Assembly: GCA_016710095.1 (NCBI GenBank)
Contig: JADJLL010000007.1
Location: forward strand, 41,122-105,121
DNA from: Candidatus Eiseniibacteriota bacterium
GTDB lineage: Bacteria > Eisenbacteria > RBG-16-71-46
Reading direction: 5' to 3'
DNA length: 64,000 nucleotides
The first letter of the stretch is position 1. The number at the start of each line of letters is the position of its first letter. A program made the position numbers and the translations under genes. The notes beneath the pieces are model-generated. The model saw nothing but the letters and a program-made list of their open reading frames with translations. It had not been told where the DNA came from and searched no databases. Below are positions 225 through 43,223 of this stretch, piece after piece.

Positions 225-2286
225 ATGCCGTTCATGCGCGAAGAAGACCTCCTCCGATTCCGTTGGGTCGCCGATCCCCAGGTTTCGCCCGGCGGCGCCC
301 GCATCGCGTTCACGCAGGTTCACGTGGACACCGAAGCCGACGAGTACCGCACGAACCTGTGGCTGGCCGAAGTGCCGGCTGCCGGTGCTGCCGAGGACGC
401 TCCCGCACCCGCGCGGCAGTTCACGTGGGCGGGCCGCGACTCGCAGCCGCGCTGGTCGCCCGACGGCGCGACGCTCGCGTTCGTGCGCAAGCCGAACGCG
501 GACGACGCCGCGCAGATCTGCCTGCTGCCCGCGAACGGCGGTGAAGCGCGTGTGCTGACGACGCTCAAGGGTGGCGGGTCCAACCCTTGCTGGTCGCCCG
601 ACGGCACGCGCATCGCGTTCCTGTCCGGGCACAACCCGGCGATCGACACGCCCGAGTAAGAAGCCGAAGCACGAGCCTGCGCGCGTCGTGACGCGCCCGG
701 AGTTCCGTTGGAACGGCGAAGGCTTCACGGATTGGGACCACCTCGACCACGTGTGGGTCGTGGACGTCGCGAGCGGCGAGGCGCGGCAGCTGACGTGCGG
801 CACGCGCTTCAAGGAAGGCGACCTTTCGTGGTCGCCCGACGGCAAGCAGGTGCTGTTCGCGAGCGACCGCCGCGAGCAGCCGTGGTTCGGCGATCCGGCC
901 GAGGACAACGGTCTGTACGCGGTCGCGGCCGATCTCGCCGCGCCGTCCGACGGCGCCGCATTCACGCTCGTCGCGGACATCGAAGGCCCGATCGCCGGTT
1001 TCACGCCGGGGCCCGGGGGCAAGTGGCTCGCATGGGGCGGCGTGCGCCCGAAGCCCATTCGTTCGTACGACCAGAACGACGTGCTGCTGTTCGAGGGCGC
1101 GTGGCCCTTGTCGAAGCCGCGCGTGCTCACGGCGGAAAAGGACCTCGCGGTCGGTGAGACGACGTCGGGCGACATGCATCCGCCGCGCGGCGGTGGCGCG
1201 CTGCCGCTCGCGTTCACGGCGGACGGCGGCATCGTCTTCGGCTACGCGTGGCAGGGTTCGACGCGCGTCGCGCGGCTGGACCTGGGCAGCGGGGAGGTGG
1301 ACGACTTCACGCCGCCCGACTGCGACGTGTACGCGGGCACGCTGTCGGCCAACGGCCGCACGCTCGCGCTCGCGATGGGCTCGACCGGATCGCCGGGCGA
1401 CCTCTGGGTGTTCGACGTGGCGAGCGGCGAGGGCGCGTGCCTGCACACGCCGAACGCCGACCTGCTCGAGGAAGCCGGGCTCGGTGAGGTCGAGGAGATC
1501 TGGTACGACAGCTTCGACGGCAAGCGTATCCAGGGCTGGATCGTGAAGCCTCCGGGCTTCGACTCCGCGCGCAAGTATCCGCTCGTGCTGCAGATTCACG
1601 GCGGTCCGCACGTGCCGTACGGCGTCGCGTTCTTCCACGAGTTCCGCGTGCTCGCCGCGGCGGGCTACATCGTGCTGTACACGAACCCGCGCGGCTCGAC
1701 GTCGTACGGGCAGGAGTTCGGCAACTGCATCCAGTACGCGTACCCGGGCGACGACTACCACGACCTCATGGCGGGCGTGGACTTCGTGCTCGCGCGCGGG
1801 TACGTGGACGAGAAGCGCATGGGCGTCACCGGCGGCAGCGGCGGCGGCCTGCTCACGAACTGGATCGTCACGCGCAACGACCGCTTCGCGGCCGCGATCA
1901 CGCAGCGCTGCGTTTCGGATTGGGCGGGGATGTACTTCTCGTGCGATTTCGCGATGTACAACGACTCGTGGTTCAAGAGCACGCCGTGGCGTGACCGCGC
2001 GCACTACGAGTCGAAGTCGCCCGTGTGGGACCTCGACAAGGTGAACACGCCGCTGATGGTGCTCCACAGCGAAGAGGACTGGCGCACGCCGATCGCGCAG
2101 GGCGAGGCGATGTTCCGCGGCCTGCTCGCGCAGAAGAAGCCCACGGTGATGGTGCGGTTCCCGGGCGAGAGCCACGAGCTGTCGCGGAGTGGGGCGCCGA
2201 GCCGGCGCGTGCAGAACCAGCAGCACATCCGCCGATGGTTCGACCACTGGCTGCAGGGCAAGCCGGCGCCGGAGTACGGGCTCTAG
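225..2286 (+). CDS. S9 family serine peptidase (acylaminoacyl-peptidase/prolyl-oligopeptidase-like; N-terminal TolB-like beta-propeller + alpha/beta-hydrolase), interrupted by an apparent +1 frameshift near nt 657
   Basis: ORFs 225..659 (repeated WSPDG beta-propeller blades) and 571..2286 (WSPDGK blades, GGSGGG nucleophile elbow, C-terminal hydrolase) are one protein in two frames. Removing a single T at ~657 gives ...IDTPEKKPKHEPARVVTRPEFRWNGEGF, which is contiguous and protein-like. The third codon position is strongly G/C in both parts. Confidence 0.8.
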
Positions 2287-8750: not shown

Positions 8751-9667
8751 CGCGAAGCTCCTTCGCCTTCGAGCTGCGGCGCGAGCAGCGCCCAGCGGCG
8801 GCGGAAGTGATCCACGGTTCCCTTGACGCCGCGCGTCAGCGCGCGGCTCGAGATCGTGGCGCCGGTGACGGCGTAGATGGGCTTCGTGCGTTCGCGGTCC
8901 ATCAGCGTGCGCCATTCGGCCGGCGCTTCGCCGCCCGTGGACGAGGCGAACGCCGACAGCGCCGCGTGCCAGTCTTCCGGCATCGGGTCGCGCGTCACGC
9001 CGAGCGCCGCGATCTCGTCCGGCGTGCGGCCGGAGAACTGCGCGCGGAACACGGGGGTCGCGATCTCGGCGCCGAGGCCGGGATCTTCTTCGTGCTCGAG
9101 CACGCGCACGCCCTTCACCGCGAGCGACGAGTCGAGCGCCACGAAGAAGCGGATGCGGTTCTTGTAGCCGCGCGACTCACCCTCGAGCACGAAGCCCGCG
9201 AGCGCGCCGCCCTGTTTGGCGACGAACAGCCGCCCGAGCTCCTCGAGCCCGGCGGGCTCGGCCGTGTTCGCCGACTCCGCCGACTCCGCGGCGCCGGAGG
9301 CGGAGGCGACGGCCCCCGCCGTGGAAGCATGCAGGCTGCCGTCGAGCCCGAACACGAACTCGCGCGTCGGCGCGGACTCGTTGCCGTACTCCTTCGCGAG
9401 GTAGCGCACCTCGCGCTTCGGCGCGTCGAGGTACTGCCGCACTTCGGTCACCTCGGCGCCTTCGCCGAACGCGAGCATGCCGCTCACCGCGCTACGCTCG
9501 CCCGCGAGCCGGGCTTCGCGCTGGTAGCGCTCCGTGCCGACGTACACGCCGCCGAGCACGATCGCGCTCACCGCGCAGACGAGTACGAGGTTCATGGCGA
9601 TGCCGGCGATGACCTTGGGATCGGCTTTCGGACGCGGGGCGCCGTCGATGTGGACGAGGTCGCTCAT
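8747..9667 (-). CDS. rnfG: Rnf complex subunit G (FMN-binding)
   Basis: N-terminal TM anchor then an FMN-binding domain (…YAVTGATISSRALTRGVKG, the covalent-FMN Thr/Ser motif). ATGA overlap with the rnfD stop. Confidence 0.85.
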   Translation of the reverse strand: MSDLVHIDGAPRPKADPKVIAGIAMNLVLVCAVSAIVLGGVYVGTERYQREARLAGERSAVSGMLAFGEGAEVTEVRQYLDAPKREVRYLAKEYGNESAPTREFVFGLDGSLHASTAGAVASASGAAESAESANTAEPAGLEELGRLFVAKQGGALAGFVLEGESRGYKNRIRFFVALDSSLAVKGVRVLEHEEDPGLGAEIATPVFRAQFSGRTPDEIAALGVTRDPMPEDWHAALSAFASSTGGEAPAEWRTLMDRERTKPIYAVTGATISSRALTRGVKGTVDHFRRRWALLAPQLEGEGASR

Positions 9668-18935: not shown

Positions 18936-19609
18936 GCAAGCGGAGAACGCAGGCGCCGCAGGCGCCGAAGAGCGCCGCTTCCGAACGCCGATCGCGCCCG
19001 GCGAACACACCGCTGATCGCGGGAGCCGCCGTGGTGGCGCTCGCGGCGGCGGGACTGTGGTTCGCCTACTTCGGAAAGACACGAGCTTCCGGCACTCCGC
19101 ACGTGAGCGTGCGCGCCGACGGACTGACGACGCAGCAGATGCTCGACAGCGTGCGCACGCATTTCGAGGCGCATCAGTGGGACGCCGCGCTCGCCTGGGC
19201 GCACGCGAGCAACGTGTCCGAGCCGGGCAACGCGCGGCTGCTGCTCAACGAAGCGCTCGCGTGGCACAACTACGCGCAGGACGCGACGCAGCGCTGGCCG
19301 GGGCGCTCGGCGACGCGCACGAGCCTCGATCGCATCGAGCTCGAGAAGCACGCGTTCGCACTGCTCGATTCCGCCGAAGCCGTCGCGGGCTCCGACGAAG
19401 AGTGGGCGAACATCCGGCGCTGGCGCGGCACGCAGTACGAGGTGCTCGGATCGCCGCTCGACGCCGTGCAGGCCTACGAGGAGGCGCTCGCGCGGTTCCC
19501 CGGCCATCGCGCGACCATCGAGCGCTTCGGCTGGTTGCAGCGCCTGATCGTGCGCCCGTCCGATCCGAAGAGCGTCACGGCGGAAGACGCCGCGCCGCGC
19601 CCCCGTTGA
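18932..19609 (+). CDS. membrane-anchored hypothetical protein (single N-terminal TM)
   Basis: GTG start with perfect GAAGGAGG RBS and GTGA overlap with the preceding stop. TM helix LIAGAAVVALAAAGLWFAYF. No recognisable domain. Confidence 0.5.
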   Translation: MSKRRTQAPQAPKSAASERRSRPANTPLIAGAAVVALAAAGLWFAYFGKTRASGTPHVSVRADGLTTQQMLDSVRTHFEAHQWDAALAWAHASNVSEPGNARLLLNEALAWHNYAQDATQRWPGRSATRTSLDRIELEKHAFALLDSAEAVAGSDEEWANIRRWRGTQYEVLGSPLDAVQAYEEALARFPGHRATIERFGWLQRLIVRPSDPKSVTAEDAAPRPR

Positions 19610-22157
19610 AGGAAGCGCGGCGCGAAGCGTACGTCGTGATGCGGGAACGCCAGTCGAGGCGGACCATGCGCTGCGTGCGCGTTCCCATACCGGACGTCAG
19701 CCGCACGAAGTAGAGTCCGGCGCGCGCGCGGGTGCCGTCCGCGAGACGGCCGTCCCAGCGCCACGAATGGCGCCCGGCGGAGAACTCGCCCGAGGTCTGC
19801 GCAATGCGCCGGCCGCTCGCGTCGAGCACCTCGACACGCGCGGATCCGGCCTGCGGCAGCGAGAACGTGAGCAGCGCGGAGCCGCCCGAAGGATTCGGCG
19901 TCGGACGCGCCAGCGCGAACGCGAGCACACCGTCCTCGACGGCGTCCGTGCTCGGGTCGCGCACGGTCACCGCAGTGACGAGCGTGTCGCTCGAGGCGTT
20001 GCCGGCCGCGTCGCGCGCGGTGATGCGCACGAAGCCGTCCTGCGTCGCGGGCGGCTGCACCGTCCACGAGTACGAGCCGGTGTTCGCGAGGCCGTGCGCG
20101 ATGCCGTACCACGGACCGCTCGTGCCGCTCGTCGAGAAGTCGATGTCCACCGAGTCCACGCCCGCGTTGTCCGTCGCGGACCACTGGATCGTGGCGGGCG
20201 AGCCCATGTCCCAGGTCTCGCCACCGGTCGGGAGCAGGAGATCCACCGTCGGCGCGGTGACGTCCACGAAGTGGGCGGCGAACGTACGCGCGCTCACGAG
20301 CGTCAGCGCGAGCGGATTGCCCGCCGTCGTCGTGTCGCCGGTCCAGCCGTCGAAGGCCCAGCCCGGCGAGGGCGTCGCGGTGACCGTGACGGACGCGCCG
20401 TACGCGTACTGCGCGAGATCGGGCGACTTCGAGACGCTGCCCGTGCCCGTGTGCGAAACGGTGAGGGAGAGCAGGTCGGCGGCGAAGCTCGCCGCGATCG
20501 TGTGCGCGGCGACGACGTTGTTGAACGTGTAGCCCGTGACCGCGCCCACGGAAACTCCGTCGACGAGGACGTCGTTCACGTGCGCGCCCGTCTGCGGCGT
20601 GATCGTGAACGCCTGCGAAGAGGCCTGGTTCACGGCGACGGCGCCCGAGGGCGCGATCGTGCCGAGTGCGCCGGCGCTCGCCGTGATCGTCCACGTGATC
20701 GGCGTGAACGACGCCGCGATCGTGTGGTTCGCGTTGATCGCGCTGAAGGTGTAGCTCGTGGGCGTGCCGACCGACACGCCGTCCACGAGCACCGTCGCGA
20801 CCTTGTAGTTCGCGGACGGCGTGATCGTGAACGTGCGGCTCGTGCCCTCGGCCTGCAGCAGCGTGCCGCTCGGCGTGATCGTGCCGTTGGCGCCCGCGCT
20901 GGCGACGATGCTCCAGCGGTCGATCGTGAAGTTCGCGGCGCTGGTGCCCGTGCCGGTGTTGAAGGCGGCGTCGCGCGCGTTCACGCGCATGCGCAGCGTC
21001 GTGCCCGGCGCGTTCGGGATGGCCCAGTTGTACGTGCCCGTGTTCGCGATGCCCGTGGCGATCGTGTTGGTGTAGTTGACGCCGCCGTCGGTCGAATAGG
21101 CGATGTCCACCGACACGACGCCGACGGCGTCGGTCGCGGTCCAAGTGATCGCGTGCGTGGAGCCAGCCTTCCAGACTTCGCCACCGTTGGGCGAGGTGAT
21201 CGTGACGCTCGGCGGCGTGACGTCGCCGGGCACGACGACGCCGCGGCGCGTGGCCCACTGCGCGGCGTTCAGGAAGATCGCACTGTCGGCCTTGGCTCCC
21301 GCGAGTTCGGTCCATCCGGTGTACACCGTGTTGCCCGGCGTCGCCGTACCGTCGTCCACGGGCGAACTGTCGCCCACGTACACGACGCGGCCGTTGCCGT
21401 ACACCGAATGCGCGACCATCGCGTTGCTCGTGCTGCCCTGCGGCATGCCCAGCATCCAGACGTCCGCGGTCACGGTGGGATTGATCGCCGGGTAGAGCGT
21501 GAAGGTGGTGCCGTTGTGGAAGGCGATGCCGGTCGCGTTGCCCCACGGTCCCGTGATGATCGAATCCCCCGGAGCCGTGTTCACGTTCGTGCTGGTCTGC
21601 ACGATGTTGTTGTTCGTTTCACCGAACACCTGCGAACGGATGCCCCAGAGCTTCTGGGCGTCGAGCAGGTTCGTGATCTGCGGGGAGTCGAAACCGTCGT
21701 TGTTCCGGTCGGACTGTCCGTGATCCACGATCAGGATCAGGCCGCCGCCGTCCCGCACGAAGTTGAAGATCGCGATGGACTCCGCGGCCGTGAACTTGAT
21801 GTTCGGCTCGGGCACGACGAACAGGTCGTAGTTCGAAAGGTCGTACTGGTTCGACGCGTTCTGGTAGGTGATCCCGTTCGGCGACGCGAGCGTATGCACC
21901 GTGTAGCCACGCTTCACGAGCGCGACACCGAAGGCCGAGATGCCGCCGGTCCAATAGGACTCGGGAGTCGTGGCGGTGATGCCCGACTGGGCCGGGCTGG
22001 GCACCGGGAACGTGTCGTCGATGATCCAGTCGGCGTTGCCGGCCTGCTCGGCCTTGGTGTTGTCGAACAACGCCTTCTTCTGGGCGGACGCCGGTGCGAC
22101 GAAGAGCGCCAGGGCGAGAAGCGCGAGCGCGAGAGGTTTGAGCATGGTGTCTTTCAT
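19575..22157 (-). CDS. large secreted multi-Ig-domain surface protein with C-terminal T9SS/FlgD-Ig-type sorting domain
   Basis: Signal peptide (MKDTMLKPLALALLALALFVAPASA). Repeated Ig-like modules (VTPPSVTITSPNGGEVW…, VTAPTVDLLLPTGGETW…). C-terminal ~80 aa resembles T9SS type-A CTD (…GLYFVRLTSGMGTRTQRMVRLD). Confidence 0.7.
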   Translation of the reverse strand: MKDTMLKPLALALLALALFVAPASAQKKALFDNTKAEQAGNADWIIDDTFPVPSPAQSGITATTPESYWTGGISAFGVALVKRGYTVHTLASPNGITYQNASNQYDLSNYDLFVVPEPNIKFTAAESIAIFNFVRDGGGLILIVDHGQSDRNNDGFDSPQITNLLDAQKLWGIRSQVFGETNNNIVQTSTNVNTAPGDSIITGPWGNATGIAFHNGTTFTLYPAINPTVTADVWMLGMPQGSTSNAMVAHSVYGNGRVVYVGDSSPVDDGTATPGNTVYTGWTELAGAKADSAIFLNAAQWATRRGVVVPGDVTPPSVTITSPNGGEVWKAGSTHAITWTATDAVGVVSVDIAYSTDGGVNYTNTIATGIANTGTYNWAIPNAPGTTLRMRVNARDAAFNTGTGTSAANFTIDRWSIVASAGANGTITPSGTLLQAEGTSRTFTITPSANYKVATVLVDGVSVGTPTSYTFSAINANHTIAASFTPITWTITASAGALGTIAPSGAVAVNQASSQAFTITPQTGAHVNDVLVDGVSVGAVTGYTFNNVVAAHTIAASFAADLLSLTVSHTGTGSVSKSPDLAQYAYGASVTVTATPSPGWAFDGWTGDTTTAGNPLALTLVSARTFAAHFVDVTAPTVDLLLPTGGETWDMGSPATIQWSATDNAGVDSVDIDFSTSGTSGPWYGIAHGLANTGSYSWTVQPPATQDGFVRITARDAAGNASSDTLVTAVTVRDPSTDAVEDGVLAFALARPTPNPSGGSALLTFSLPQAGSARVEVLDASGRRIAQTSGEFSAGRHSWRWDGRLADGTRARAGLYFVRLTSGMGTRTQRMVRLDWRSRITTYASRRASFNGGAARRLPP

Positions 22158-22295
22158 CGATGGGGCGATGGGCGCTGCGGGGGCAAAGTGTCCCCTCAAT
22201 AGTAGAGGGGCGCGCCTTGCCGAAACAAACGAAACACCGCCGCGACGCCGGGCAATTTGCCCCGGAGGCGCGGCGGCGGTGCGTTCTGCAAAACT

Positions 22296-27735: not shown

Positions 27736-27744
27736 GGTGAAGTG

Positions 27745-29655
27745 ATGAAACTGCGGATCGGCGTCCTGACCGTACTGGGAGTCGCGGCCGTCACGGCCGG
27801 GAGCATCGGCATGATGTCCGGCCTGGTGCTCAAGGCGCATCGTGACGCGCAGATCGCCCAGCTCACTCAGGGCGCCGATCAGCTGAGCGAGACGATCGTG
27901 AGCAGCACGTTCTGGGACATGCTCGAGAACCACCGTCCCGCGCTGCACCGCGAGATGATCACGATCGGGAAGCAGAAGGGCATCGAGAAGGTCCGGCTGT
28001 TCAACCGGACCGGCAAGATCATGTTCTCCTCGAGCGAGGGCGAGATCGGGCACTCGCTCGACAAGAAGTACGAGGCCTGCATCGCGTGTCACGCCGCCGA
28101 CCAGCCGATCACGCGGCCGCCGACGAAGGCGCGCGCGCGCATCTACCGCGCGGCGGACGGGCACCGGGTGCTGGGCATGATCCGCCCGATCCACAACGAG
28201 ACGCGCTGCTGGAACTCGGGCTGCCACGCGCACTCGCGCGAGGAGAACGTGCTCGGCGTGCTCGACGTGAACCTGTCGCTCGCCGAGACCGACGCGCGCA
28301 TCGCAGCCGACCAGCGCCGCATGATCCTGCTCGCCGTGCTCATCATGGCGACGATCAGCACGGTCCTGTTGTGGTTCGGCGAGCGGCTCGTGCTGCGGCC
28401 CGTGCGCGAACTGATCGCCGGTACGCGCCGCGTCGCCGCGGGCGACCTGCACACGATGCTGCCCGCCGCCTCGAGCACCGAACTGGGCGACCTCGCGCGC
28501 GCGTTCAACGAGATGACGAGCAAGCTCTCCGACGCGCAGCGCCAGCTCACGCAGGCGGACAAGCTCGCCTCGGTCGGCCGGCTCGCCGCCGGCGTGGCGC
28601 ACGAGATCAACAACCCGCTCACCGGCGTGCTGACGTACGCCTCGTTCCTGCAGAAGCGTCTCGCCGACCGTCCCGAGGTGAAGGAAGACCTCGAGGTGAT
28701 CGTGCGCGAGACGAAGCGCTGTCGCGACATCGTGCGCGGGCTGCTCGACTTCTCGCGCCAGTCGCCGCCGCAGCACAAGCCGACCGACCTCAACGAGATC
28801 GTGCGCCGCGCCGTGGCCGTCGTGATGAACCAGCTCATGCTGCGCCGCGTCGCGCTCGACTTCCATCTCGCCGACGGGCTCGAAGCCGTGCCGGCGGACG
28901 GCAACCAGATCCAGCAGGTCGTCGTGAATCTCGTGATGAACGCCGCCGACGCGATCGGCGAGGGCGGCGGCACGATCGCCGTGCGCACCGCGGCCGTCGA
29001 ACTGCCCGCGCGTGGGAACTCGATCATCCGCCTGGCGCGCTGCCCGCACGGATGCGACGTCCTCGATCCCACGGTGCGCATCGGCGCGCACCCGGCGATC
29101 AAGGTGATCCGCCGCACGGGCGACCGCGACGACGTCGTGCACATGGATCCCGTGTACGGCCGCGCGAACCACCACGCGAGCGGCCCGCTCGAACGCGACA
29201 AGCTCGCGACGTACGCCTGCCCGCGCTGCCGCGCGAAGCTCGACGGCCCCGCGCGCTGCGGCGACTGCGGCGCGCCGACCTTCGCGGTCGTCTCGCCCGA
29301 GCTCGGCCGCATCGAGTGGTGCACGCGCAAGGGCTGCCACTGGACGCGCTGCGAGACGCTCGACGCGTCGGGCCCGCTACGCATGGTCGAGCTGGAAGTG
29401 CGCGACAGCGGCAAGGGCATCGCGCCGGAGGATCTCGATCACCTGTTCGAGCCGTTCTTCACGACCAAGGGCAACCGCGGTCTGGGGCTGGGGCTCGCGG
29501 TGACCTACGGCATCGTCGAGCGCCACGGCGGCACGATCGTGGTGTCGAGCGAGTTGGGGAACGGCGCGACGTTCCTCGTGCGCCTGCCGCTCCTGCGCGC
29601 GGGGCAGAACGCCGCGATCGTCACGGAGTCCGTCCGGACGGGAGGTGTCTCGTGA
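27745..29655 (+). CDS. sensor histidine kinase with periplasmic c-type-heme sensor domain and a Cys-rich (Zn-ribbon-like) insertion inside the HATPase domain
   Basis: TM1…~160-aa periplasmic domain with CIACH (CXXCH) and CWNSGCH (CX4CH)…TM2, then HAMP and HisKA (H box AHEINNPL). HATPase N-box NLVMNAADA, then a ~140-aa insert containing CPHGC, CPRC, CGDC and CTRKGCHWTRC, then the G1/G2 boxes (DSGKGI…GLGLGLAV). Confidence 0.85.
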   Translation: MKLRIGVLTVLGVAAVTAGSIGMMSGLVLKAHRDAQIAQLTQGADQLSETIVSSTFWDMLENHRPALHREMITIGKQKGIEKVRLFNRTGKIMFSSSEGEIGHSLDKKYEACIACHAADQPITRPPTKARARIYRAADGHRVLGMIRPIHNETRCWNSGCHAHSREENVLGVLDVNLSLAETDARIAADQRRMILLAVLIMATISTVLLWFGERLVLRPVRELIAGTRRVAAGDLHTMLPAASSTELGDLARAFNEMTSKLSDAQRQLTQADKLASVGRLAAGVAHEINNPLTGVLTYASFLQKRLADRPEVKEDLEVIVRETKRCRDIVRGLLDFSRQSPPQHKPTDLNEIVRRAVAVVMNQLMLRRVALDFHLADGLEAVPADGNQIQQVVVNLVMNAADAIGEGGGTIAVRTAAVELPARGNSIIRLARCPHGCDVLDPTVRIGAHPAIKVIRRTGDRDDVVHMDPVYGRANHHASGPLERDKLATYACPRCRAKLDGPARCGDCGAPTFAVVSPELGRIEWCTRKGCHWTRCETLDASGPLRMVELEVRDSGKGIAPEDLDHLFEPFFTTKGNRGLGLGLAVTYGIVERHGGTIVVSSELGNGATFLVRLPLLRAGQNAAIVTESVRTGGVS

Positions 29656-30050
29656 GCCGAGCCTGGGACGTGCTGGTGGTGGACGACGAAGCCGTCGTGC
29701 GCGGCGGCGTGAAGCTCGTGCTCGAGCCCGAAGGACTGGCCGTCGCGCAGGCCGCGACCGTCGCCGAGGCGCTCGCGAGCGACGCCCTGAACGAATGCCG
29801 CTTGCTGCTCTGCGACCTGATGCTGCAGGGCGAGAGCGGACTCGAGGTCGTGAGCGAGGCGCGCCGCCGCCGGCCCGCGCTGCCCATCGTGCTCATGACC
29901 GGCTATGCCACCGACGACAACGCCGCCCTCGGCGCGCAGTCCGGTGCGACCGATTTCCTCGCGAAGCCTTTCGATGATGTCGAGCTGTTGGACCAGGTAC
30001 GGCGTGTCCTCGGGGATGCCCATGCCGACGAGAAGGAGGGATCGTCATGA
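29652..30050 (+). CDS. single-domain CheY-like response regulator
   Basis: GTGA overlap with the kinase stop. VLVVDDE…D-L-M-L receiver with conserved Asp (LLLCDLMLQG) and Lys (FLAKPF). Confidence 0.75.
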   Translation: MSRAWDVLVVDDEAVVRGGVKLVLEPEGLAVAQAATVAEALASDALNECRLLLCDLMLQGESGLEVVSEARRRRPALPIVLMTGYATDDNAALGAQSGATDFLAKPFDDVELLDQVRRVLGDAHADEKEGSS

Positions 30051-30102
30051 CCGCGCTTCTGGTGGTCGTGCTGTGTGTGTTGTTCCTGGGATCGAACTCG
30101 GC

Positions 30103-31194
30103 GTGCGCGCCGTGAACAAGAACCTCGAAGCCGCCCGCGTGCGGCGCGAGCGTGAAGCCGTGCTCAAGGCGCCCGTGAAGCTGGACATCGCGACCGAGAC
30201 GCCCAGCCTGCAGCGCGCCGAAGTGCCGAACGCGAAGGCCCGCATCCTCGCCGTGGACGACGAGGCGATCGTGCTCGACTCGTTCCGCAAGATCCTCGTG
30301 CTCGCCGGCTTCAGCGTGGACACCGTGAACACCGGTCCCGAGGCGCTCGCGCTCGTGCGCCAGCGCGACTACGACTTCCTGTTCACCGATCTCAAGATGC
30401 CGGTCATGGAAGGCACCGAGGTCGTGAAGGCCGTGAAGCACCTGCGTCCGGACGTGGACGTCGCCGTGATCACCGGCTTCGCCACGATCGAGACCGCCGT
30501 CGAAACGATGATGCACGGCGCGGTGGACTACGTGCAGAAGCCGTTCACGGAAGAAGAGCTCGTCGCGTTCGCGAACCGCATGTACGTGCGCCGTCAGGCG
30601 CGCATCGAGTCGCAGTCGAAGCCGGCCGTGCGCGTGGTCGCGCCCGAGCTGGTGGACATCATGGCGTCGCGTGAGTACGTCGTGCCCGGCGGCATGTTCG
30701 TGGCGACCGGCCACACGTGGGCGCGCATCGAGGACACCGGCGAAGTGTGCGTCGGCATCGACGACTTCGCGCGCAAGGCGATCGGCAAGGTCGAGCGCGT
30801 CGAGCTGCCCGCGCCCGGCACGAGCGTGAAGCGCGGCGAGGTGCTGTTCGTGGTGCGCCGCAAGGATGAGCACGTGCGCTTCCGTTCGCCCGTGAGCGGC
30901 ACGGTGACGGCGGTGAACGGCGACGTGAAGAAGGACGCCCGCGCGATGCTGGAGAGCCCGTACGAGCACGGTTGGACGTGCATGCTGCACCCGACCGACC
31001 TGACGCTCGACCTGGCAAACCTGCGCATCGGCAAGACCGTCGTGAGCTGGTACCAGGACGAGGTGACCGCGCTGCGCAAGGCGAACTCGGAAGCGACCGA
31101 CGGCGTGGTCCGCTGGTCGGCGCTCGAGGAGCGCTTCATGGGCGCCGGCGACGCCCCGCGCGAAACCACGACGGAGATCGTCGAAGTCGGGTAG
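30103..31194 (+). CDS. response regulator: receiver domain fused to a glycine-cleavage-system H-protein-like (lipoyl-carrier-fold) domain
   Basis: REC (ARILAVDDE…FLFTDLKMP…VQKPF) followed by a clear GcvH-like region (HTWARIEDTGEVCVGIDDFARKAIGKVERVELPAPGTSVKRGEVLFVV…SPVSGTVTAVNGDV). The lipoyl-Lys of the ESVKA motif is not conserved in register (VVRRKDEH). Start chosen at in-frame GTG 30103; 30112 is also possible. Confidence 0.75.
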   Translation: MRAVNKNLEAARVRREREAVLKAPVKLDIATETPSLQRAEVPNAKARILAVDDEAIVLDSFRKILVLAGFSVDTVNTGPEALALVRQRDYDFLFTDLKMPVMEGTEVVKAVKHLRPDVDVAVITGFATIETAVETMMHGAVDYVQKPFTEEELVAFANRMYVRRQARIESQSKPAVRVVAPELVDIMASREYVVPGGMFVATGHTWARIEDTGEVCVGIDDFARKAIGKVERVELPAPGTSVKRGEVLFVVRRKDEHVRFRSPVSGTVTAVNGDVKKDARAMLESPYEHGWTCMLHPTDLTLDLANLRIGKTVVSWYQDEVTALRKANSEATDGVVRWSALEERFMGAGDAPRETTTEIVEVG

Positions 31195-31282: not shown

Positions 31283-32229
31283 CTAGCGGTAGCCGGTCTT
31301 CAGTCGTCCCCACGTCGTGGTGCGCGCGGGAACGGGCCGGCCGGGGCCGGGGCCGTAGGCGCCGATCTGTCCGCCGGAGTTGCTGTACTCGTAGAAGATC
31401 GAGGCGGGGGAAAGACGGAAGTCGTTGCCGAAGGCGTCCTGGAAGAACGGGTCGAAGCCGGCGATGTGCGCTCCCATGGTCGAGCAGGTCAGTCCATTCC
31501 CTCCGCTCGACCAGATATCGCAGTAGTCCCAACTCGGGTAGCTCAGGCATCCATACCAGACCCCCACGCTTGCGATGGCGCCGTTTTGCGCAAGTCCCCG
31601 CTGCCGAAACACTCATCGCATTCGTGGCATTCCGAACCATCAGGCGCGCGATCGCATGCGGTCCGCCGCTTGCGGAGAGTCCTTGGTCCGCGTCCGCGAG
31701 TTCGCAGTCCAGAATATTGCCGCCGTGTTGCGAGTCGATACAGATCTGCGACGCGGAGATGCTGGACTCGAGGACGCTGCCGCTTCCCACCAGAACGAGC
31801 CCCTTGCGCGGTCCATGAACTGAGAGCTTCCGCAGGGAGGCGGCCCCGCTGCCTTCCATTCGAATTTGTCCCCATTCGCCGAAGCCAGAAGTCCAGAACC
31901 GAATGCTGTCGGCGACCGATCCGTCGGCGACGAGCGAGCCGAACACACTGAGCTCGGAGAGGTTCGGGAACTCCCCACCATGCAGCGTGTCGTGATCGGC
32001 TTGAAGTAGACCAGCACGCCCGGCTCGATCGTGAGCGTGGCGCCGGGGTTGACCACCACGTCGCCTTGCACGAAGTACATGGGACCGGGGTAGGCGTAGG
32101 TCAGCGTGCGATTGCCGTTGATGAAGCCGTAGAGCTTGTTGCTGTTCGGGTCGACGGCGGCGTTCGCCACGCTCGAACAGAGCACGAACAGGAGCAGTGC
32201 AGCACCGAGTCGGGGTAGCCAGTTCCGCA
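31283..32229 (-). CDS. secreted right-handed beta-helix (pectate-lyase-fold-like) protein ending in TTTWGRLKTGYR, disrupted by at least two frameshifts (~32000 and ~31615)
   Basis: N-terminal signal peptide (MRNWLPRLGAALLLFVLCSSVANA) in one frame. Beta-helix repeats (…GSVLESSISASQICIDSQHGGNILDC…) in a second frame. C-terminal ~110 aa in a third frame ending …ARTTTWGRLKTGYR. Confidence 0.45.
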
Positions 32230-32336
32230 TGGGAATACTCCAAAGGCGAGAGGTGGCGGGGGAAATCACGCGCAGACTATCGATCGCCGTGGCCGTCCGC
32301 ACCGGGCCAGAAGTAGGCCGCGCAGCGCTGAGAAGT

Positions 32337-32425
32337 TGGTGCCGGAGGCGGGGGTCGAACCCGCACACGATTTTGGTCGTACCGGATTTTGAGTCCGGCG
32401 CGTCTGCCAGTTCCGCCACTCCGGC
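32337..32425 (-). tRNA. tRNA-Leu (anticodon CAA)
   Basis: 89-nt cloverleaf GCCGGAGTGGCGGAACTGGCAGACGCGCCGGACTCAAAATCCGG…long variable arm…GGGTTCGACCCCCGCCTCCGGCACCA. Anticodon loop CT-CAA-AA. CCA encoded. Confidence 0.9.
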
Positions 32426-32683
32426 ACAAAGGAGGGGCGACAAGCTATCGCGGCGCGGGAGCGGGCGTCAAAATCCGGGATCTCGCCGAAACCGCACCGC
32501 GATGAGCTCGCACCCAAACTCCGATTGCCACCACCAAACACGCGCGAGCCCGGCCCCCGAACTTCCCGTGTGTGTCCGAACACTTTCCCTTTCGCGGAGT
32601 GACCCGACGGTGCTAGGTTCCCGCCGAGCGAATCCGTCTCAACGTTTTTCAGAGGCACCGCACACCGCCGGAGGAGACCCATC

Positions 32684-33388
32684 ATGAAGCGTTCGGCTAC
32701 CCGTCTTCACGCGCTGCTCGCCACGTTCGTGGTGACCATCGCGATCGCGAGCTCCGCCCACGCGGCGCTTCGCGCGCCTCAGGTGTCCATTCTCGGCGGT
32801 GGCCTTCAGGGCTACCTCAACTCCGCCGACGGCGGCATCAACGTCGGCACCGATCAGGATGCCACGACTTCCTGGACGCACACGTCGTCCAACACCACCG
32901 GCTACACGATCCTGCTCGAGTCCTCTGGCGGCGCGAACAACAACGCGCTGGCGATCTACAACAGCACGGCTGGCGTGCCGACGATGAACATTCTCATCTC
33001 GGGCCCGATCGGCGAGTACGGCTTCTCGACCGCGACGTTCAAGCCGGGGAACCAGCTCACGGTGAACCGCTACGACGAGAACGGCGCCTTCCTGAGCACG
33101 TCGACGTTCAACGGCGTCGACCCGAATGGCTTCAGCTTCGCGCTCCTCACCGCGAGCGGTAACTTCTACACGCAGGACGCGCGCAATCCGGGCGGCAAGG
33201 CCCAGGCGGTCTCGTTCAAGGGCACTGGCGGCAACACGGGCGTCTGGTTCCTCTGCTTCGAGGACTCGCAGGTTCAGGGCGGTGGCTCGGACGAGGACTT
33301 CGACGACGCCGTCATTGCGATGGAGTCGGTCAACACGACGCCCGTCAGCACGACGACGTGGGGCCAGCTCAAGACCCGCATGCGGTAA
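32684..33388 (+). CDS. secreted protein with DUF4114-like C-terminal region, ending in TTTWGQLKTRMR
   Basis: Signal peptide. C-terminal WFLCFEDSQVQGGGSDEDFDDAVI resembles the conserved DUF4114 core. Terminal …STTTWGQLKTRMR matches the C-terminus of the divergent beta-helix gene. Confidence 0.65.
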   Translation: MKRSATRLHALLATFVVTIAIASSAHAALRAPQVSILGGGLQGYLNSADGGINVGTDQDATTSWTHTSSNTTGYTILLESSGGANNNALAIYNSTAGVPTMNILISGPIGEYGFSTATFKPGNQLTVNRYDENGAFLSTSTFNGVDPNGFSFALLTASGNFYTQDARNPGGKAQAVSFKGTGGNTGVWFLCFEDSQVQGGGSDEDFDDAVIAMESVNTTPVSTTTWGQLKTRMR

Positions 33389-33693
33389 CTGCGCAGATCA
33401 GCAGAACGCAGTTTCGAGGGGCGGCGCTCACGCGAGTGTCGCCCCTCTTCTTTGTTGCCGCGGTTCATGGCGTCCAGCCGGCGTCGACGCTTGCGGGCAC
33501 CGGCGCCCGGTGTGTCGTGCGGGCGGAGCATGCCCGGTCCCGTACACGCCATCCGGGCGCTCCTGTCCCGGGCCGTACATTCCGCTGGCGCTCGAGTGTG
33601 GTTTTCCACCATCTTGCGCGCGGCACAGGGAGTGCACGGGGAAGCTCTCGAGTTCCCCCGTTCCGACAAGTCCCCACCCTGGAGGTCGCACCG

Positions 33694-40759: not shown

Positions 40760-41377
40760 TCAAAGCACCGTGCGGTTCGAGCTCTTCACGACCGGCTCGG
40801 ACGGCTCCGGTTCCGGCGCGGGCTCGGCGCACAACGAGTCGATCGCCGCGCGCGTCGCGCTCGAGAGCCACTCGATCTCGCCCGCCTGCTTCGCCGCCAC
40901 GCGGCCCGAGCGATCGATCACGTAGGTGTACGGGATGCTCGGGCAGGGCAGACCCGCCGCGAGGTCCTTGCGCAGGTCGAGCAGCACCGGCAGCCGGAGC
41001 CGCATGCGCCCCACGTAACGCGAGACGCTCGGGAACGGATCGAAGCACACGAGCGCGACCTCGACCGCTCCGGGCGGCAGCGACCGTCGCAGCGAGTCGA
41101 GCGTCGTCGCCTGCGGGCCGGAGTGCCGCATCCACGGCGCCCAGTATTCGACGATCAGCACGCGCTGCCCCGGGACGAGCCGGCGCACGCCGACGGGCAC
41201 CATCGGCAGGGAAGCGTCGAAGGCCGCCGCCGGGCGATCCGCGGCGGGGGTGAGCGCGAGCGGTGTGGGTGTGGCGCCGGTGCGCTGCACGGTGAACAGC
41301 TCCGCCTTCCAGACGAGCGTGCCGAGCACTGCGAGCGCGGCGAGTCCGAGCAGGAGCGTGCGGACGCGCGGGGTCAT
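40760..41377 (-). CDS. TlpA/redoxin-like thioredoxin-fold protein lacking the CXXC motif, translationally coupled to cstA
   Basis: Signal-anchor MTPRVRTLLLGLAALAVLGTLVW. Thioredoxin-fold region with WAPWMRHS at the position of the redoxin WCxxC. GGGAG RBS. ATGA overlap with the cstA stop. Confidence 0.55.
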   Translation of the reverse strand: MTPRVRTLLLGLAALAVLGTLVWKAELFTVQRTGATPTPLALTPAADRPAAAFDASLPMVPVGVRRLVPGQRVLIVEYWAPWMRHSGPQATTLDSLRRSLPPGAVEVALVCFDPFPSVSRYVGRMRLRLPVLLDLRKDLAAGLPCPSIPYTYVIDRSGRVAAKQAGEIEWLSSATRAAIDSLCAEPAPEPEPSEPVVKSSNRTVL

Positions 41378-43223
41378 CGTGCGGCTCCCGCGTCGAGCGC
41401 GCCGGAAGGCTGCGCCTCGCCACGGACGTGCGACCACCAGTGCCGCGCGCAGTCGCCGACGATCACGACCATGAGCGCCATCACGACGAGCGTGACGACG
41501 CACTGGATGCGCGCGGGCGTGGGCGCGGCGGCGAACGCCGACCACAGGTCCGGCGCGCCGGCGGCGAGCGGGCCGCGCAGGTAGTTGAGCGACAGGTTGA
41601 GCCAGCCCGCGACGAGAGTGTTCGCGCACATGAACGCGAGCGGCACGAGCGTCGCCCATGTGTAGCGCGCGCGACCGTGGTTCACCATCCACGACGTCGC
41701 GATCGCGAGCGCGATGGCCGCGAGCAGCTGGTTCGCCACGCCGAGCAGCGGCCACACGGTGGTCACCGTGCCCGTCCACACGAAGTAGCCCCACGCGCAC
41801 ACCGACAGCGCGCTGAACACCGCCGCGGGCGCGAAGCCCGTCCAACCGCGAAGCTTCGGGAACGCCATGCTGCCGACCTCCTGGAACATGTAGCGCGTGA
41901 CTCGCGTGCCCGTGTCGATCAGCGTCATGACGAACATGGCTTCGAACATGATGACGAAGTGGTACCAGAAGCTCATGAGCCCGCCCAGCGCGGGCAGCTT
42001 CGAGAAGATCTGCGCCATGCCGACCGCGAGCGACACGGCGCCGCCGGGCCGTCCGGTGATGTTCTCGCCGACCTGCGCCGAGAGCGCCTGCAGGTGCACG
42101 GGCGTCAGGCCGAGCTTGGCGAACACTTCGGGCTTCGTGTTGATCGCGAAATAGTCGGCGGGCTCGAGCGAGCACGCGGCGACGAGCGCGATGATGCCGA
42201 CGAAGCCCTCGAGCAGCATGGCGCCGTACGCGACCGGGAGCATGTCGCGCTCGCGTTCGACCATCTTGGGCGTCGTGCCGGATGCGATGAGGGAGTGGAA
42301 GCCGGAGATCGCGCCGCACATGATCGTGATGAAGACGAACGGGAACATCGGTCCGGGAATCACGGGGCCGCCGCCGTGCACGAACGGCGTGAACGCCGGC
42401 ATGCGCAGCTAGGGTTCACGAGCAGCACGCCGGCGGCGAGCACGAGCATCGCGCCGATCTTGAGGAAGCTCGACAGGTAGTCGCGCGGGCAGAGCAGCAG
42501 CCACACGGGTAGCACCGACGCGATGAAGCCGTACGCCATGAGCGCGATCGTGAGCTGGCGGTCGGAGAACATGAGGAACGGCCGCAGCGCCGAGTCGTGC
42601 ACCCACGCGCCGCCCGCGACGGCGAGCACGAGCGCCACGACGCCGAACGTCGTCGCGGTCTTCACCGCGCCGGGCCGGATGCGGTACGTGAAGAGTCCCA
42701 TCACGAGCGCGATCGGTATCGTGCAGCCGATCGAGAACACGCCCCACGCGCTGTCGCGCAGCGAACTCACGACCACGAGCGCCATCGCGGCGAGCGCGAC
42801 CACCATCACGAACACGATCGCGATACTCGTCGCCGCGCCGGTGAGCGGGCTCACCTGCTCGCGCGCGATGTTCGCGAGCGAGCGCCCGCCGCTGCGCACG
42901 CTCGCCGTGAGGATGACGAAGTCGTGCACGCCGCCCGCGATCACCGAACCGAGCAGCAGCCACAGGAAGCCGGGCGCCCATCCGAACTGCGCGGCGAGCA
43001 CGGGGCCGAGCAGCGGACCGGCGCCGGAGATCGCGGCGAAGTGATGGCCGAAGAGCACCCAGCGTTTCGTGGGCACGTAGTCGTGGCCGTCGCGCGAGGT
43101 GTGCGCGGGCGTCGCGCGCAGGTCGTCGAGCGTGGCGACGCGGGCGGCGAGGAACACGCCGTAGGTGCGATAGGCGATGACCGCGATGAGCGCGGCGCAC
43201 GCGACCAGGTAGAGCGCGGGCAA
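41374..43223 (-). CDS. cstA: carbon starvation protein A (peptide/pyruvate transporter family), with apparent 1-nt deletion frameshift near 42411-42416
   Basis: N-terminal ORF (…GHHFAAISGAGPLLGPVLAAQFGWAPGFLWL…) and C-terminal ORF (MPAFTPFVHGGGPVIPGPMFPFVFITIMCGAISGFHSLIASGTTPKM…) are contiguous CstA sequence in two frames. Inserting one base after CCT restores …VNP-x-LRMPAF…. TTG start. Confidence 0.8.

Follow-up and report, generated by a model that had tools for sequence, protein, structure and literature searches.

A short C-terminal tag on unrelated exported proteins of Eisenbacteria and related phyla: a probable sorting or anchoring signal

C-terminal sorting signals have repeatedly led to envelope machines, as happened with sortase, exosortase, rhombosortase, myxosortase and the type IX secretion system (T9SS). 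For the small tripartite signals among them, namely LPXTG (sortase), PEP-CTERM (exosortase), GlyGly-CTERM (rhombosortase) and MYXO-CTERM (myxosortase), seven criteria have been published (bioRxiv 10.1101/2023.06.07.544157). The T9SS type A domain (TIGR04183 / PF13860) is a module of another kind, since it is a folded immunoglobulin (Ig)-like unit of ~70-100 residues, found at the extreme C-terminus of unrelated Sec-exported proteins. The beta-signal of outer-membrane proteins, read by the beta-barrel assembly machinery (BAM), is a short motif with which exported proteins close; it ends in Phe, Trp or Tyr and forms the last barrel strand. In Escherichia coli, the Braun lipoprotein, which is a single protein family, is attached to peptidoglycan by L,D-transpeptidases through the Lys that forms the last residue of its C-terminal ...YRK. 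Finally, the C-terminal amphipathic membrane-targeting sequences of MinD, FtsA and PBP5, of which MinD and FtsA are cytoplasmic proteins, are conserved in character, not in identity. Here we describe a tail of 12-17 residues that closes two neighbouring genes in a 64-kb window (the whole stretch of DNA analysed, 64,000 nucleotides, 69.7% G+C) of a metagenome-assembled genome (MAG) of Candidatus Eisenbacteria. This tail is probably a self-contained, lineage-restricted C-terminal sorting or anchoring tag, carried behind a short Pro/Thr linker by many unrelated Sec-exported proteins of Eisenbacteria and related phyla of the Fibrobacterota-Chlorobiota-Bacteroidota (FCB) group.

An earlier note on this DNA had claimed that two secreted proteins of otherwise unrelated folds, encoded on either side of a tRNA-Leu gene, share a C-terminal motif devoid of a transmembrane (TM) helix, and this observation was confirmed. 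Both tails were found where they had been proposed (Table 1): the plus-strand open reading frame (ORF) ends in ...VSTTTWGQLKTRMR (the same ending is also given as ...ESVNTTPVSTTTWGQLKTRMR), and the minus-strand ORF fragment 31283..31612 ends in ...ARTTTWGRLKTGYR (also given as ...GPGPGRPVPARTTTWGRLKTGYR). Just 8 residues follow the Trp before the stop, so no TM helix is present. The two tails are 21/26 identical in DNA; the bodies upstream of them have no mutual similarity and are modelled as a beta-sandwich and a beta-helix. In a six-frame scan of the 64 kb, WG.[LIVM]K occurs at 2 places only, each of them 4 residues ahead of a stop codon, and a DNA pattern encoding TTTWGxLKT has 2 matches in the window versus 0 in 100 dinucleotide-preserving shuffles.

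The tail is widespread. When each GTDB species, represented by one genome, was searched with a degenerate DNA probe (T-[TS]-W-G-x-[LIVM]-K-x-x-[FY]-R-stop, ~36 bits), at least 122 matches were obtained in at least 118 loci, as compared with ~10 estimated by chance (1.2e12 positions, uniform composition). Together with the orthologues and relatives of the window proteins described below, these matches show that the motif is not confined to the two window genes, a possibility raised in the earlier note. All matched records are MAGs, and according to their titles the 118 loci listed comprise 50 from Eisenbacteria, 6 each from Krumholzibacteria and Gemmatimonadota, 4 from Poribacteria, 3 each from Latescibacteria and Fibrobacteraceae, 1 each from Neomarinimicrobiota and Effluviviaceae, 36 from an unclassified "bacterium" and 8 from other phyla, these last being mostly short contigs, possibly mis-binned. 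With 2.9 million viral contigs (IMG/VR) the same probe gave 2 matches, both apparently genuine tagged ORFs on contigs of 66-68% GC (L122, 214-249, minus strand, ending TTWGSIKAFYR*; L123, 12449-12484, minus strand, ending TTWGRIKTMYR*), which are either misclassified bacterial DNA or mobile elements with tagged genes.

Because the probe itself contains a stop codon, the C-terminal position of the motif had to be assessed on DNA other than the seeds. Further WG.[LIVM]K occurrences in the six frames of the probe-fetched loci lie 3-6 residues before a stop in 42 of 48 cases, and at exactly 4 residues in 31. In Eisenbacteria DNA outside the probe selection (the window and loci L119 and L120; 105 kb), all 5 occurrences are at ORF ends, 4 being canonical and 1 degenerate. 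Similarly, when a hidden Markov model (HMM) of 32-residue C-termini was compared, with position unconstrained, with 1.84 billion cluster representatives (E <= 0.001), 82 of the 90 hits ended at most 4 residues from the protein end, several exceptions being visibly frameshifted fragments; a profile of 40-residue C-termini searched in a 5.8-billion protein database, where the word index was limiting, yielded 8 candidates and 2 hits. Tagged ORFs use all three stop codons, and hydrophobic-looking read-through downstream of the stop is found in 9 of 151 cases; stop recoding or read-through into a hidden TM segment was rejected on these grounds. As a separate observation, TAG is the stop of 56% of tagged versus 39% of untagged ORFs in L001-L118 (chi-square p 0.004), a difference to which taxon mix or spurious control ORFs may contribute.

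Several copies of the tag occur in the same genome. Besides the 2 of the 64-kb window, 8-kb loci were found with 7 (L017), 4 (L014) and 3 copies (L071 and L108), often in tandem arrays, and several MAGs were matched on 2-3 contigs. The array of L017 (1649-6972, plus strand) consists of 7 paralogous tagged proteins, six of ~225 aa and one of 419 aa, most of them with an N-terminal, Cys-containing, lipoprotein-like signal (G-C-G/S), and resembles variable surface-protein families. In two proteins the motif occurs twice: in P0187 (238 aa) it is found directly after the signal peptide (VEQSSWGSIKLLFR) and at the C-terminus, and in P0191 (106 aa) there are two copies in tandem. These double-motif proteins could be gene fusions, mis-calls or real cases of internal copies.

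The consensus of the tag is P-[TV]-P-[VT]-E-x-T-[TS]-W-G-x-[IVL]-K-x-[LM]-[YF]-R-COOH. The W, G, K and terminal R are near-invariant (the last residue is Arg in 98%), T-[TS] precedes the W and [YF] precedes the R; conservation of W, K and G extends to orthologues retrieved without the motif pattern. In the 146 tagged proteins from which position frequencies were taken, positions -8 to -4 from the Trp were unconstrained by the probe and are nevertheless conserved across families, with P/A at -8, T/V/S at -7, P (50%) at -6, V/T at -5 and E (39%) at -4. At the basic end there is a single Lys besides the terminal Arg; further Arg or Lys residues appear now and then, at no fixed place, and no Arg cluster is formed. 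In 77 of these 146 proteins, from unrelated families (L001-L118), the nearest upstream Cys is found 9-12 residues ahead of the Trp, and this Cys, perhaps a disulfide or modification site, may be part of the tag instead of the bodies. AlphaFold2 (AF2) models of two unrelated folds, those of the 234-aa lectin-like protein of the window and of P0121, a 420-aa relative of the beta-helix protein, share the same plan: a confident body, a disordered linker and a detached 9-residue tail helix with a predicted local distance difference test (pLDDT) of 48-59. No Pfam or NCBIfam model matches the tail in the window proteins or in 72 tagged representatives, in agreement with the impression of the earlier note that it resembles none of the familiar C-terminal tags closely enough to match. 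Likewise, no description of it was found in the literature on Eisenbacteria sorting, choice-of-anchor proteins and FCB T9SS, subscription-only papers being outside the scope of this search. The tag may have gone unnoticed because all its carriers come from uncultured organisms.

The carriers are diverse and mostly exported. After removal of the last 22 residues, 143 tagged bodies fall into 75 BLAST clusters, the median length of tagged proteins being 231 aa. In the 72 representatives, 24 different Pfam families were found, the majority of the proteins having no hit; the extracytoplasmic domains among them include LTD (lamin-tail), NHL, Beta_helix, PD40, CHRD, DUF642, MAM, cupredoxin, pectate lyase and LamG. 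A signal-peptide-like N-terminus is present in 85 of 110 tagged ORFs (77%) versus 90 of 334 untagged ORFs (27%) from the same loci (Fisher p 1e-20), an enrichment for which the earlier note had proposed a test, and some carriers have lipoprotein boxes. According to NCBIfam, several carriers belong to families that owe their definition or name to alternative C-terminal anchors and that in other lineages have PEP-CTERM, GlyGly-CTERM, MYXO-CTERM or T9SS domains: choice-of-anchor V, C and J, NxxGxxAF repeat, ScyF (PEP-CTERM), ExeM (GlyGly-CTERM), M36 peptidases dependent on rhombosortase or myxosortase, and the MXAN_6652 MYXO-CTERM family.

The exchange of the tail for a known sorting domain can be seen within the beta-helix family. 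The corrected translation of the window gene found 17 relatives, which match Pfam Beta_helix, and the ending T[TS]WG[RKSA][LIV]K...R is present in 12 beta-helix relatives. In the family alignment the bodies correspond as far as IGAYGPG, beyond which 11 members continue with the tail and 2 with the T9SS-type domain. In two others, P0127 and P0133, a domain of ~90 residues stands at the place of the tail, after IGAYGP; TIGR04183 (T9SS type A) recognizes this ending in P0127 with 26.2 bits, above the cut-off of 23, and scores 16.8 bits, below the cut-off, in P0133. The window copy itself is disrupted. When P0121 is aligned to the window by tblastn, its residues 1-77 fall at 32230-32000, residues 77-214 at 32003-31590 in another frame, and residues 318-420 at 31594-31286 in the first frame again. 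There are thus two compensating frame changes, near 32000-32003 and 31590-31594, and ~103 middle residues of P0121 have no counterpart; identity is 95% at one end (first 77 residues), 67% at the other and 51% in the middle. Given the frame changes and the missing residues, the window copy is either a pseudogene or a shorter gene disturbed by assembly errors; it may be a mosaic or decaying copy, or carry such errors. Assembly indels are as likely as true decay, since split genes occur elsewhere in the window too; family members naturally differ in their number of helix turns. The earlier note had also considered that the C-terminal frame might prove wrong once the frameshifts were corrected. 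However, the last 26 residues of P0121, GAYGPGPGRPVPARTTTWGRLKTGYR, are identical to the window tail, and the frame of the tail is therefore correct. The AF2 model of P0121 (pLDDT 83) is a beta-helix, with the tail as a detached low-confidence helix at 411-419.

The second carrier, the 234-aa lectin-like protein, is 100% identical to P0001, an NCBI protein from a Candidatus Eisenbacteria MAG. All 120 listed full-length orthologues end in [ST]-W-G-x-[LVI]-K-x-R-[FLM]-[RHNKQ] following an ESVNPTPV linker, with W-S in place of W-G in 2 of them; in a 61-sequence alignment of orthologues, W226 and K230 are invariant, and G227 and R232 nearly so. An N-terminal MKR...A-x-A pattern is common to the orthologues, and the AF2 model (pLDDT 82) begins with a helix at residues 2-21 and a low-pLDDT segment at 22-27. 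Residues 64-218 form a beta-sandwich, which has a weak Foldseek match to the LecB/PA-IIL lectin; residues 219-224 adopt no regular secondary structure, and the tail follows as a short helix, detached from the body (225-233, pLDDT 54-59). The terminator-like hairpin downstream of the stop (Table 1) indicates that the gene truly ends at the tail. The 'DUF4114-like' label of the earlier note can be kept only loosely: NCBI names the identical protein in this way, but the score against PF13448 (DUF4114) is 21.7 bits, under the gathering cut-off of 27 (E 4e-4, residues 159-214). A precomputed PF13448 match exists in one distant orthologue, P0119.

Compared with the described systems, the tail shares five of the seven published features of the tripartite signals (bioRxiv 10.1101/2023.06.07.544157), in that it lies near the C-terminus, recurs within a genome, has an invariant signature and is carried by proteins that mostly have signal peptides and are otherwise unrelated. 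What it does not have is a hydrophobic segment of TM length and a C-terminal cluster of 2-5 basic residues (mostly Arg), the two features that put those signals within reach of intramembrane sorting enzymes; with no membrane segment in the tail, its mode of recognition would differ from that of all tripartite signals. The carrier families also overlap with theirs (choice-of-anchor, ExeM, M36, ScyF), and the upstream Cys recalls faintly the Cys-containing tripartite signals, although only about half of the carriers have it. Like the T9SS type A domain, the tail occupies the extreme C-terminus of unrelated Sec-exported proteins, in the same genomes and loci and, in the beta-helix family, at the same position; unlike it, the tail is far shorter and has no detectable similarity to it. 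In fact, TIGR04183, PF18962 and PF13860 gave no hit in the two tagged window proteins and the 72 representatives. The short basic end, with an aromatic-Arg pair, a Lys and no TM segment, is reminiscent of the Braun lipoprotein, but the Lys of the tail is internal and the tag is found on dozens of families. With the sequences of MinD, FtsA and PBP5 it has in common ~10 terminal residues, a mixture of aromatic or aliphatic and basic residues and a predicted helix, whereas it differs from them by its invariant residues and unremarkable hydrophobic moment. Finally, the tail resembles the beta-signal in being a short motif with Gly and aromatics at the very C-terminus of exported proteins; it does not belong to that class, as it ends in Arg after a flexible linker and its carriers are soluble proteins with a beta-sandwich or beta-helix fold.

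Modular and strictly C-terminal, the tag is found in several copies per genome on proteins with signal peptides, and it exchanges with known sorting domains. A role in directing localisation is suggested by this last property, because homologous proteins have known sorting signals where the tail stands. The carrier would be exported by Sec first, and a trans-acting envelope factor, encoded elsewhere in the genome, might then recognise the invariant W-G, K and [YF]-R, which keep a constant distance from the free carboxyl end. This factor would direct the carrier to the cell surface or the outer membrane, or fix it there, a job equivalent to that of the T9SS type A domain, PEP-CTERM, GlyGly-CTERM or MYXO-CTERM in homologous proteins. 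The earlier proposal that the tagged proteins are substrates of a dedicated export or anchoring pathway fits the position of the tag, the many families, the signal peptides and the several copies, but several points weigh against it and against a sorting role in general. When 665 ORFs were clustered by BLAST and the 128 genes immediately beside tagged genes were scanned with Pfam, common families alone came up and no linked protease, sortase or receptor; the 128 neighbours have 173 Pfam families, none of them in more than 3 neighbours, and are unrelated housekeeping genes. As the tail has neither a hydrophobic segment nor an Arg cluster, no known sortase-like mechanism applies to it. Moreover, signal peptides were scored with a crude heuristic of our own, identical for tagged and untagged ORFs; the seed set was chosen with the stop in the pattern and includes tandem paralogues, so that some counts are non-independent; every carrier comes from MAGs; and the figure of tens of copies per genome is a rough extrapolation from 2 per 64 kb, not a direct per-genome count.

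A more specific version of the sorting reading is that the tail represents an alternative minimal T9SS signal, a third type beside the type A and type B domains, read by an outer-membrane protein of the PorV/PorQ family. The exchange between tail and type A domain at one position of the beta-helix family speaks for this, as does the occurrence of the tail in FCB-group phyla. The only neighbour that recurs widely beside tagged genes is a protein with a T9SS type A domain at its end (37 of the 118 listed loci), and one such protein is encoded in the window, so the same genome uses both kinds of C-terminal module; proteins with this domain are, however, common in these genomes anyway. PorV/PorQ-family genes (NF033709, 115-127 bits) lie at most 8 kb from tagged genes in three orthologous Poribacteria loci (L033, L095 and L118), and a fragmentary ORF of an Eisenbacteria locus (L099) groups with them by BLAST alone, but this linkage amounts to about two independent loci. 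Furthermore, 12-17 residues are too few for the Ig-like fold of the known T9SS signals, the tail has no sequence resemblance to the end of those domains, and Bacteroidota are absent from the 118 listed loci, a result to be read with the low-GC genomes disfavoured by the CGN-Arg and other codon choices of the probe. A T9SS signal of this kind appears rather unlikely. The tail was also considered as a truncated T9SS domain, which was rejected, the alignment with the domain offering no real counterpart to it. As regards the Poribacteria loci, they form a conserved cluster of two tagged ~220-aa genes, nadA, the PorV/PorQ-family gene and a giant adhesin-like protein of more than 1350 aa with a T9SS-type C-terminal domain.

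Four further explanations do not involve that system. If a transpeptidase joined the invariant Lys to peptidoglycan or to some other polymer of the envelope, the fixed distance of this residue from the C-terminus, the nearly invariant aromatic-Arg pair and the exact spacing to the free end would be accounted for; covalent anchoring is nonetheless improbable, given that this Lys is internal, five residues from the end, that the carrier families are elsewhere surface or extracellular proteins and not periplasmic tethers, and that the neighbour scan showed no L,D-transpeptidase gene linked to tagged genes. Equally doubtful is a cationic amphipathic helix that would sit, without any machinery, non-covalently on a membrane leaflet or lipopolysaccharide: AF2 predicts the nine-residue helix in both families, and W, [IVL], [LM] and [YF] alternate with K and R, but nine residues are very short for a stable anchor, the confidence of the helix is low, and its hydrophobic moment is not distinctive (0.42 versus 0.33 for order-shuffled tails, 28% of which reach or exceed it). 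Besides, the near-invariance of W-G, K, R and T-T and the exact distance to the carboxyl end argue for recognition by a protein and not by lipid. PDZ-domain proteases typically recognise a free C-terminus, and the exact position of the motif would suit a tag for a periplasmic protease or quality control, in degradation or maturation, with no role in localisation. This reading is very unlikely, in turn: a degradation tag would not be expected to replace surface-sorting domains in choice-of-anchor families, nor to be retained by secreted proteins of 75 families that look functional. Finally, the adjacency of the two window genes and the near-identical DNA of their tails might point to a local duplication or coincidence, or the tail might be an integral part of the fold. 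Both notions are practically untenable, as the tail is kept in the listed orthologues, in the beta-helix relatives and in ~75 unrelated clusters from many MAGs, with which local duplication is refuted, and as there is no similarity upstream of the tail, which is detached from the fold in both AF2 models.

If the tail is a sorting or anchoring tag, there is a substantial chance that the machinery behind it is new. With somewhat less than even confidence, the tag might belong to a previously undescribed sorting system of FCB-group candidate phyla (Eisenbacteria, Krumholzibacteriota, Latescibacterota, Poribacteria, Gemmatimonadota and Fibrobacterota), in which new machinery would read a signal of 12-17 residues, free of any membrane segment, via the free C-terminus, and would transport the cargo across the outer membrane, place it on that membrane or bind it covalently via the Lys. 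Such a system would be a mechanistic class apart from sortase-like, exosortase-like, rhombosortase-like and T9SS sorting. The surface or secreted proteins marked by the tag, from lectin-like, beta-helix, NHL, cupredoxin, protease and nuclease families, appear to be a sizeable set, and they belong to abundant uncultured phyla of soils and sediments with practically unexplored cell surfaces. Since it is sharply defined, the question is directly testable and a simple HMM would annotate the cargo; for annotation, the tag accounts for the recurrent conserved ending of many 'hypothetical proteins'.

Table 1. Features of the tagged region and of the T9SS type A protein, in window coordinates.
Feature	Position	Strand	Remarks
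874-aa multi-Ig protein with T9SS type A sorting domain (FlgD-Ig-like)	19578..22199	-	FlgD_ig E 1e-8; TIGR04183 37.6 bits, cut-off 23
Disrupted secreted right-handed beta-helix gene	31283..32230	-	segments 32230-32000, 32003-31590 (shifted frame), 31594-31286; stop 31285-31283
C-terminal tag TTTWGRLKTGYR of beta-helix gene	31286..31321	-	TAG stop next
tRNA-Leu(CAA)	32337..32425	-	between both tagged genes; context, outside the tag
234-aa exported lectin-like beta-sandwich protein gene, carries tail	32684..33388	+	ORF; NCBI name DUF4114 domain-containing
Signal peptide, residues 1-27	32684..32764	+	cleavage between MKRSATRLHALLATFVVTIAIASSAHA and AL, site inferred by eye
Thr/Pro linker N-T-T-P-V-S, residues 217-222	33332..33349	+	matches P-[TV]-P-[VT]-E-x part of extended tag
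C-terminal tag TTTWGQLKTRMR, residues 223-234	33350..33385	+	TAA stop directly after, 33386-33388
Terminator-like hairpin and T-run	33416..33447	+	28 nt past stop of 234-aa gene

Other features of the window deserve mention. In the 874-aa protein of Table 1, the T9SS domain covers residues 768-846; beyond it the ORF runs on for ~28 residues of unusual sequence, perhaps owing to another frameshift. Two further genes appear split into overlapping ORFs (41377-42402 / 42363-43223, minus strand, and 225-656 / 571-2283, plus strand). The former is a CstA-like gene, the two halves of which (41377-43223) correspond to one intact 620-aa gene in L119, a syntenic locus of another Eisenbacteria MAG; the split genes, together with this intact counterpart, suggest an indel-prone (perhaps long-read) assembly. 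In L119, the tRNA-Leu(CAA), the lectin-like gene and a tRNA-Ala(GGC) are conserved and the slot upstream of the tRNA differs, being occupied by a beta-helix protein with an FlgD-Ig-like C-terminal ending (no NCBIfam hit), in line with the exchange of tail and domain in the beta-helix family, and by a 205-aa gene. The latter (8916-9533, minus strand) adjoins the tRNA-Leu and encodes a secreted protein ending in ...SSQRTWGQVKLAPTATNR*, where a WGxVK core is followed by nine unrelated residues; this tail looks decayed or frameshifted. Another observation concerns the two-component genes of the window. At 27742-29652 (plus strand), a HAMP/HisKA histidine kinase has a CIACH motif within its sensor part and a Cys-rich, zinc-ribbon-like insertion (CPHGC...CPRCRAKLDGPARCGDCG...) preceding the ATPase domain. 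The gene after it, at 29905-31191 (plus strand), joins a response-regulator receiver to a glycine-cleavage-H-like (lipoyl/biotinyl-type) domain, and this arrangement of kinase and receiver/H-like protein is kept in L119, where it adjoins cytochrome c7, 4Fe-4S and NrfD genes.

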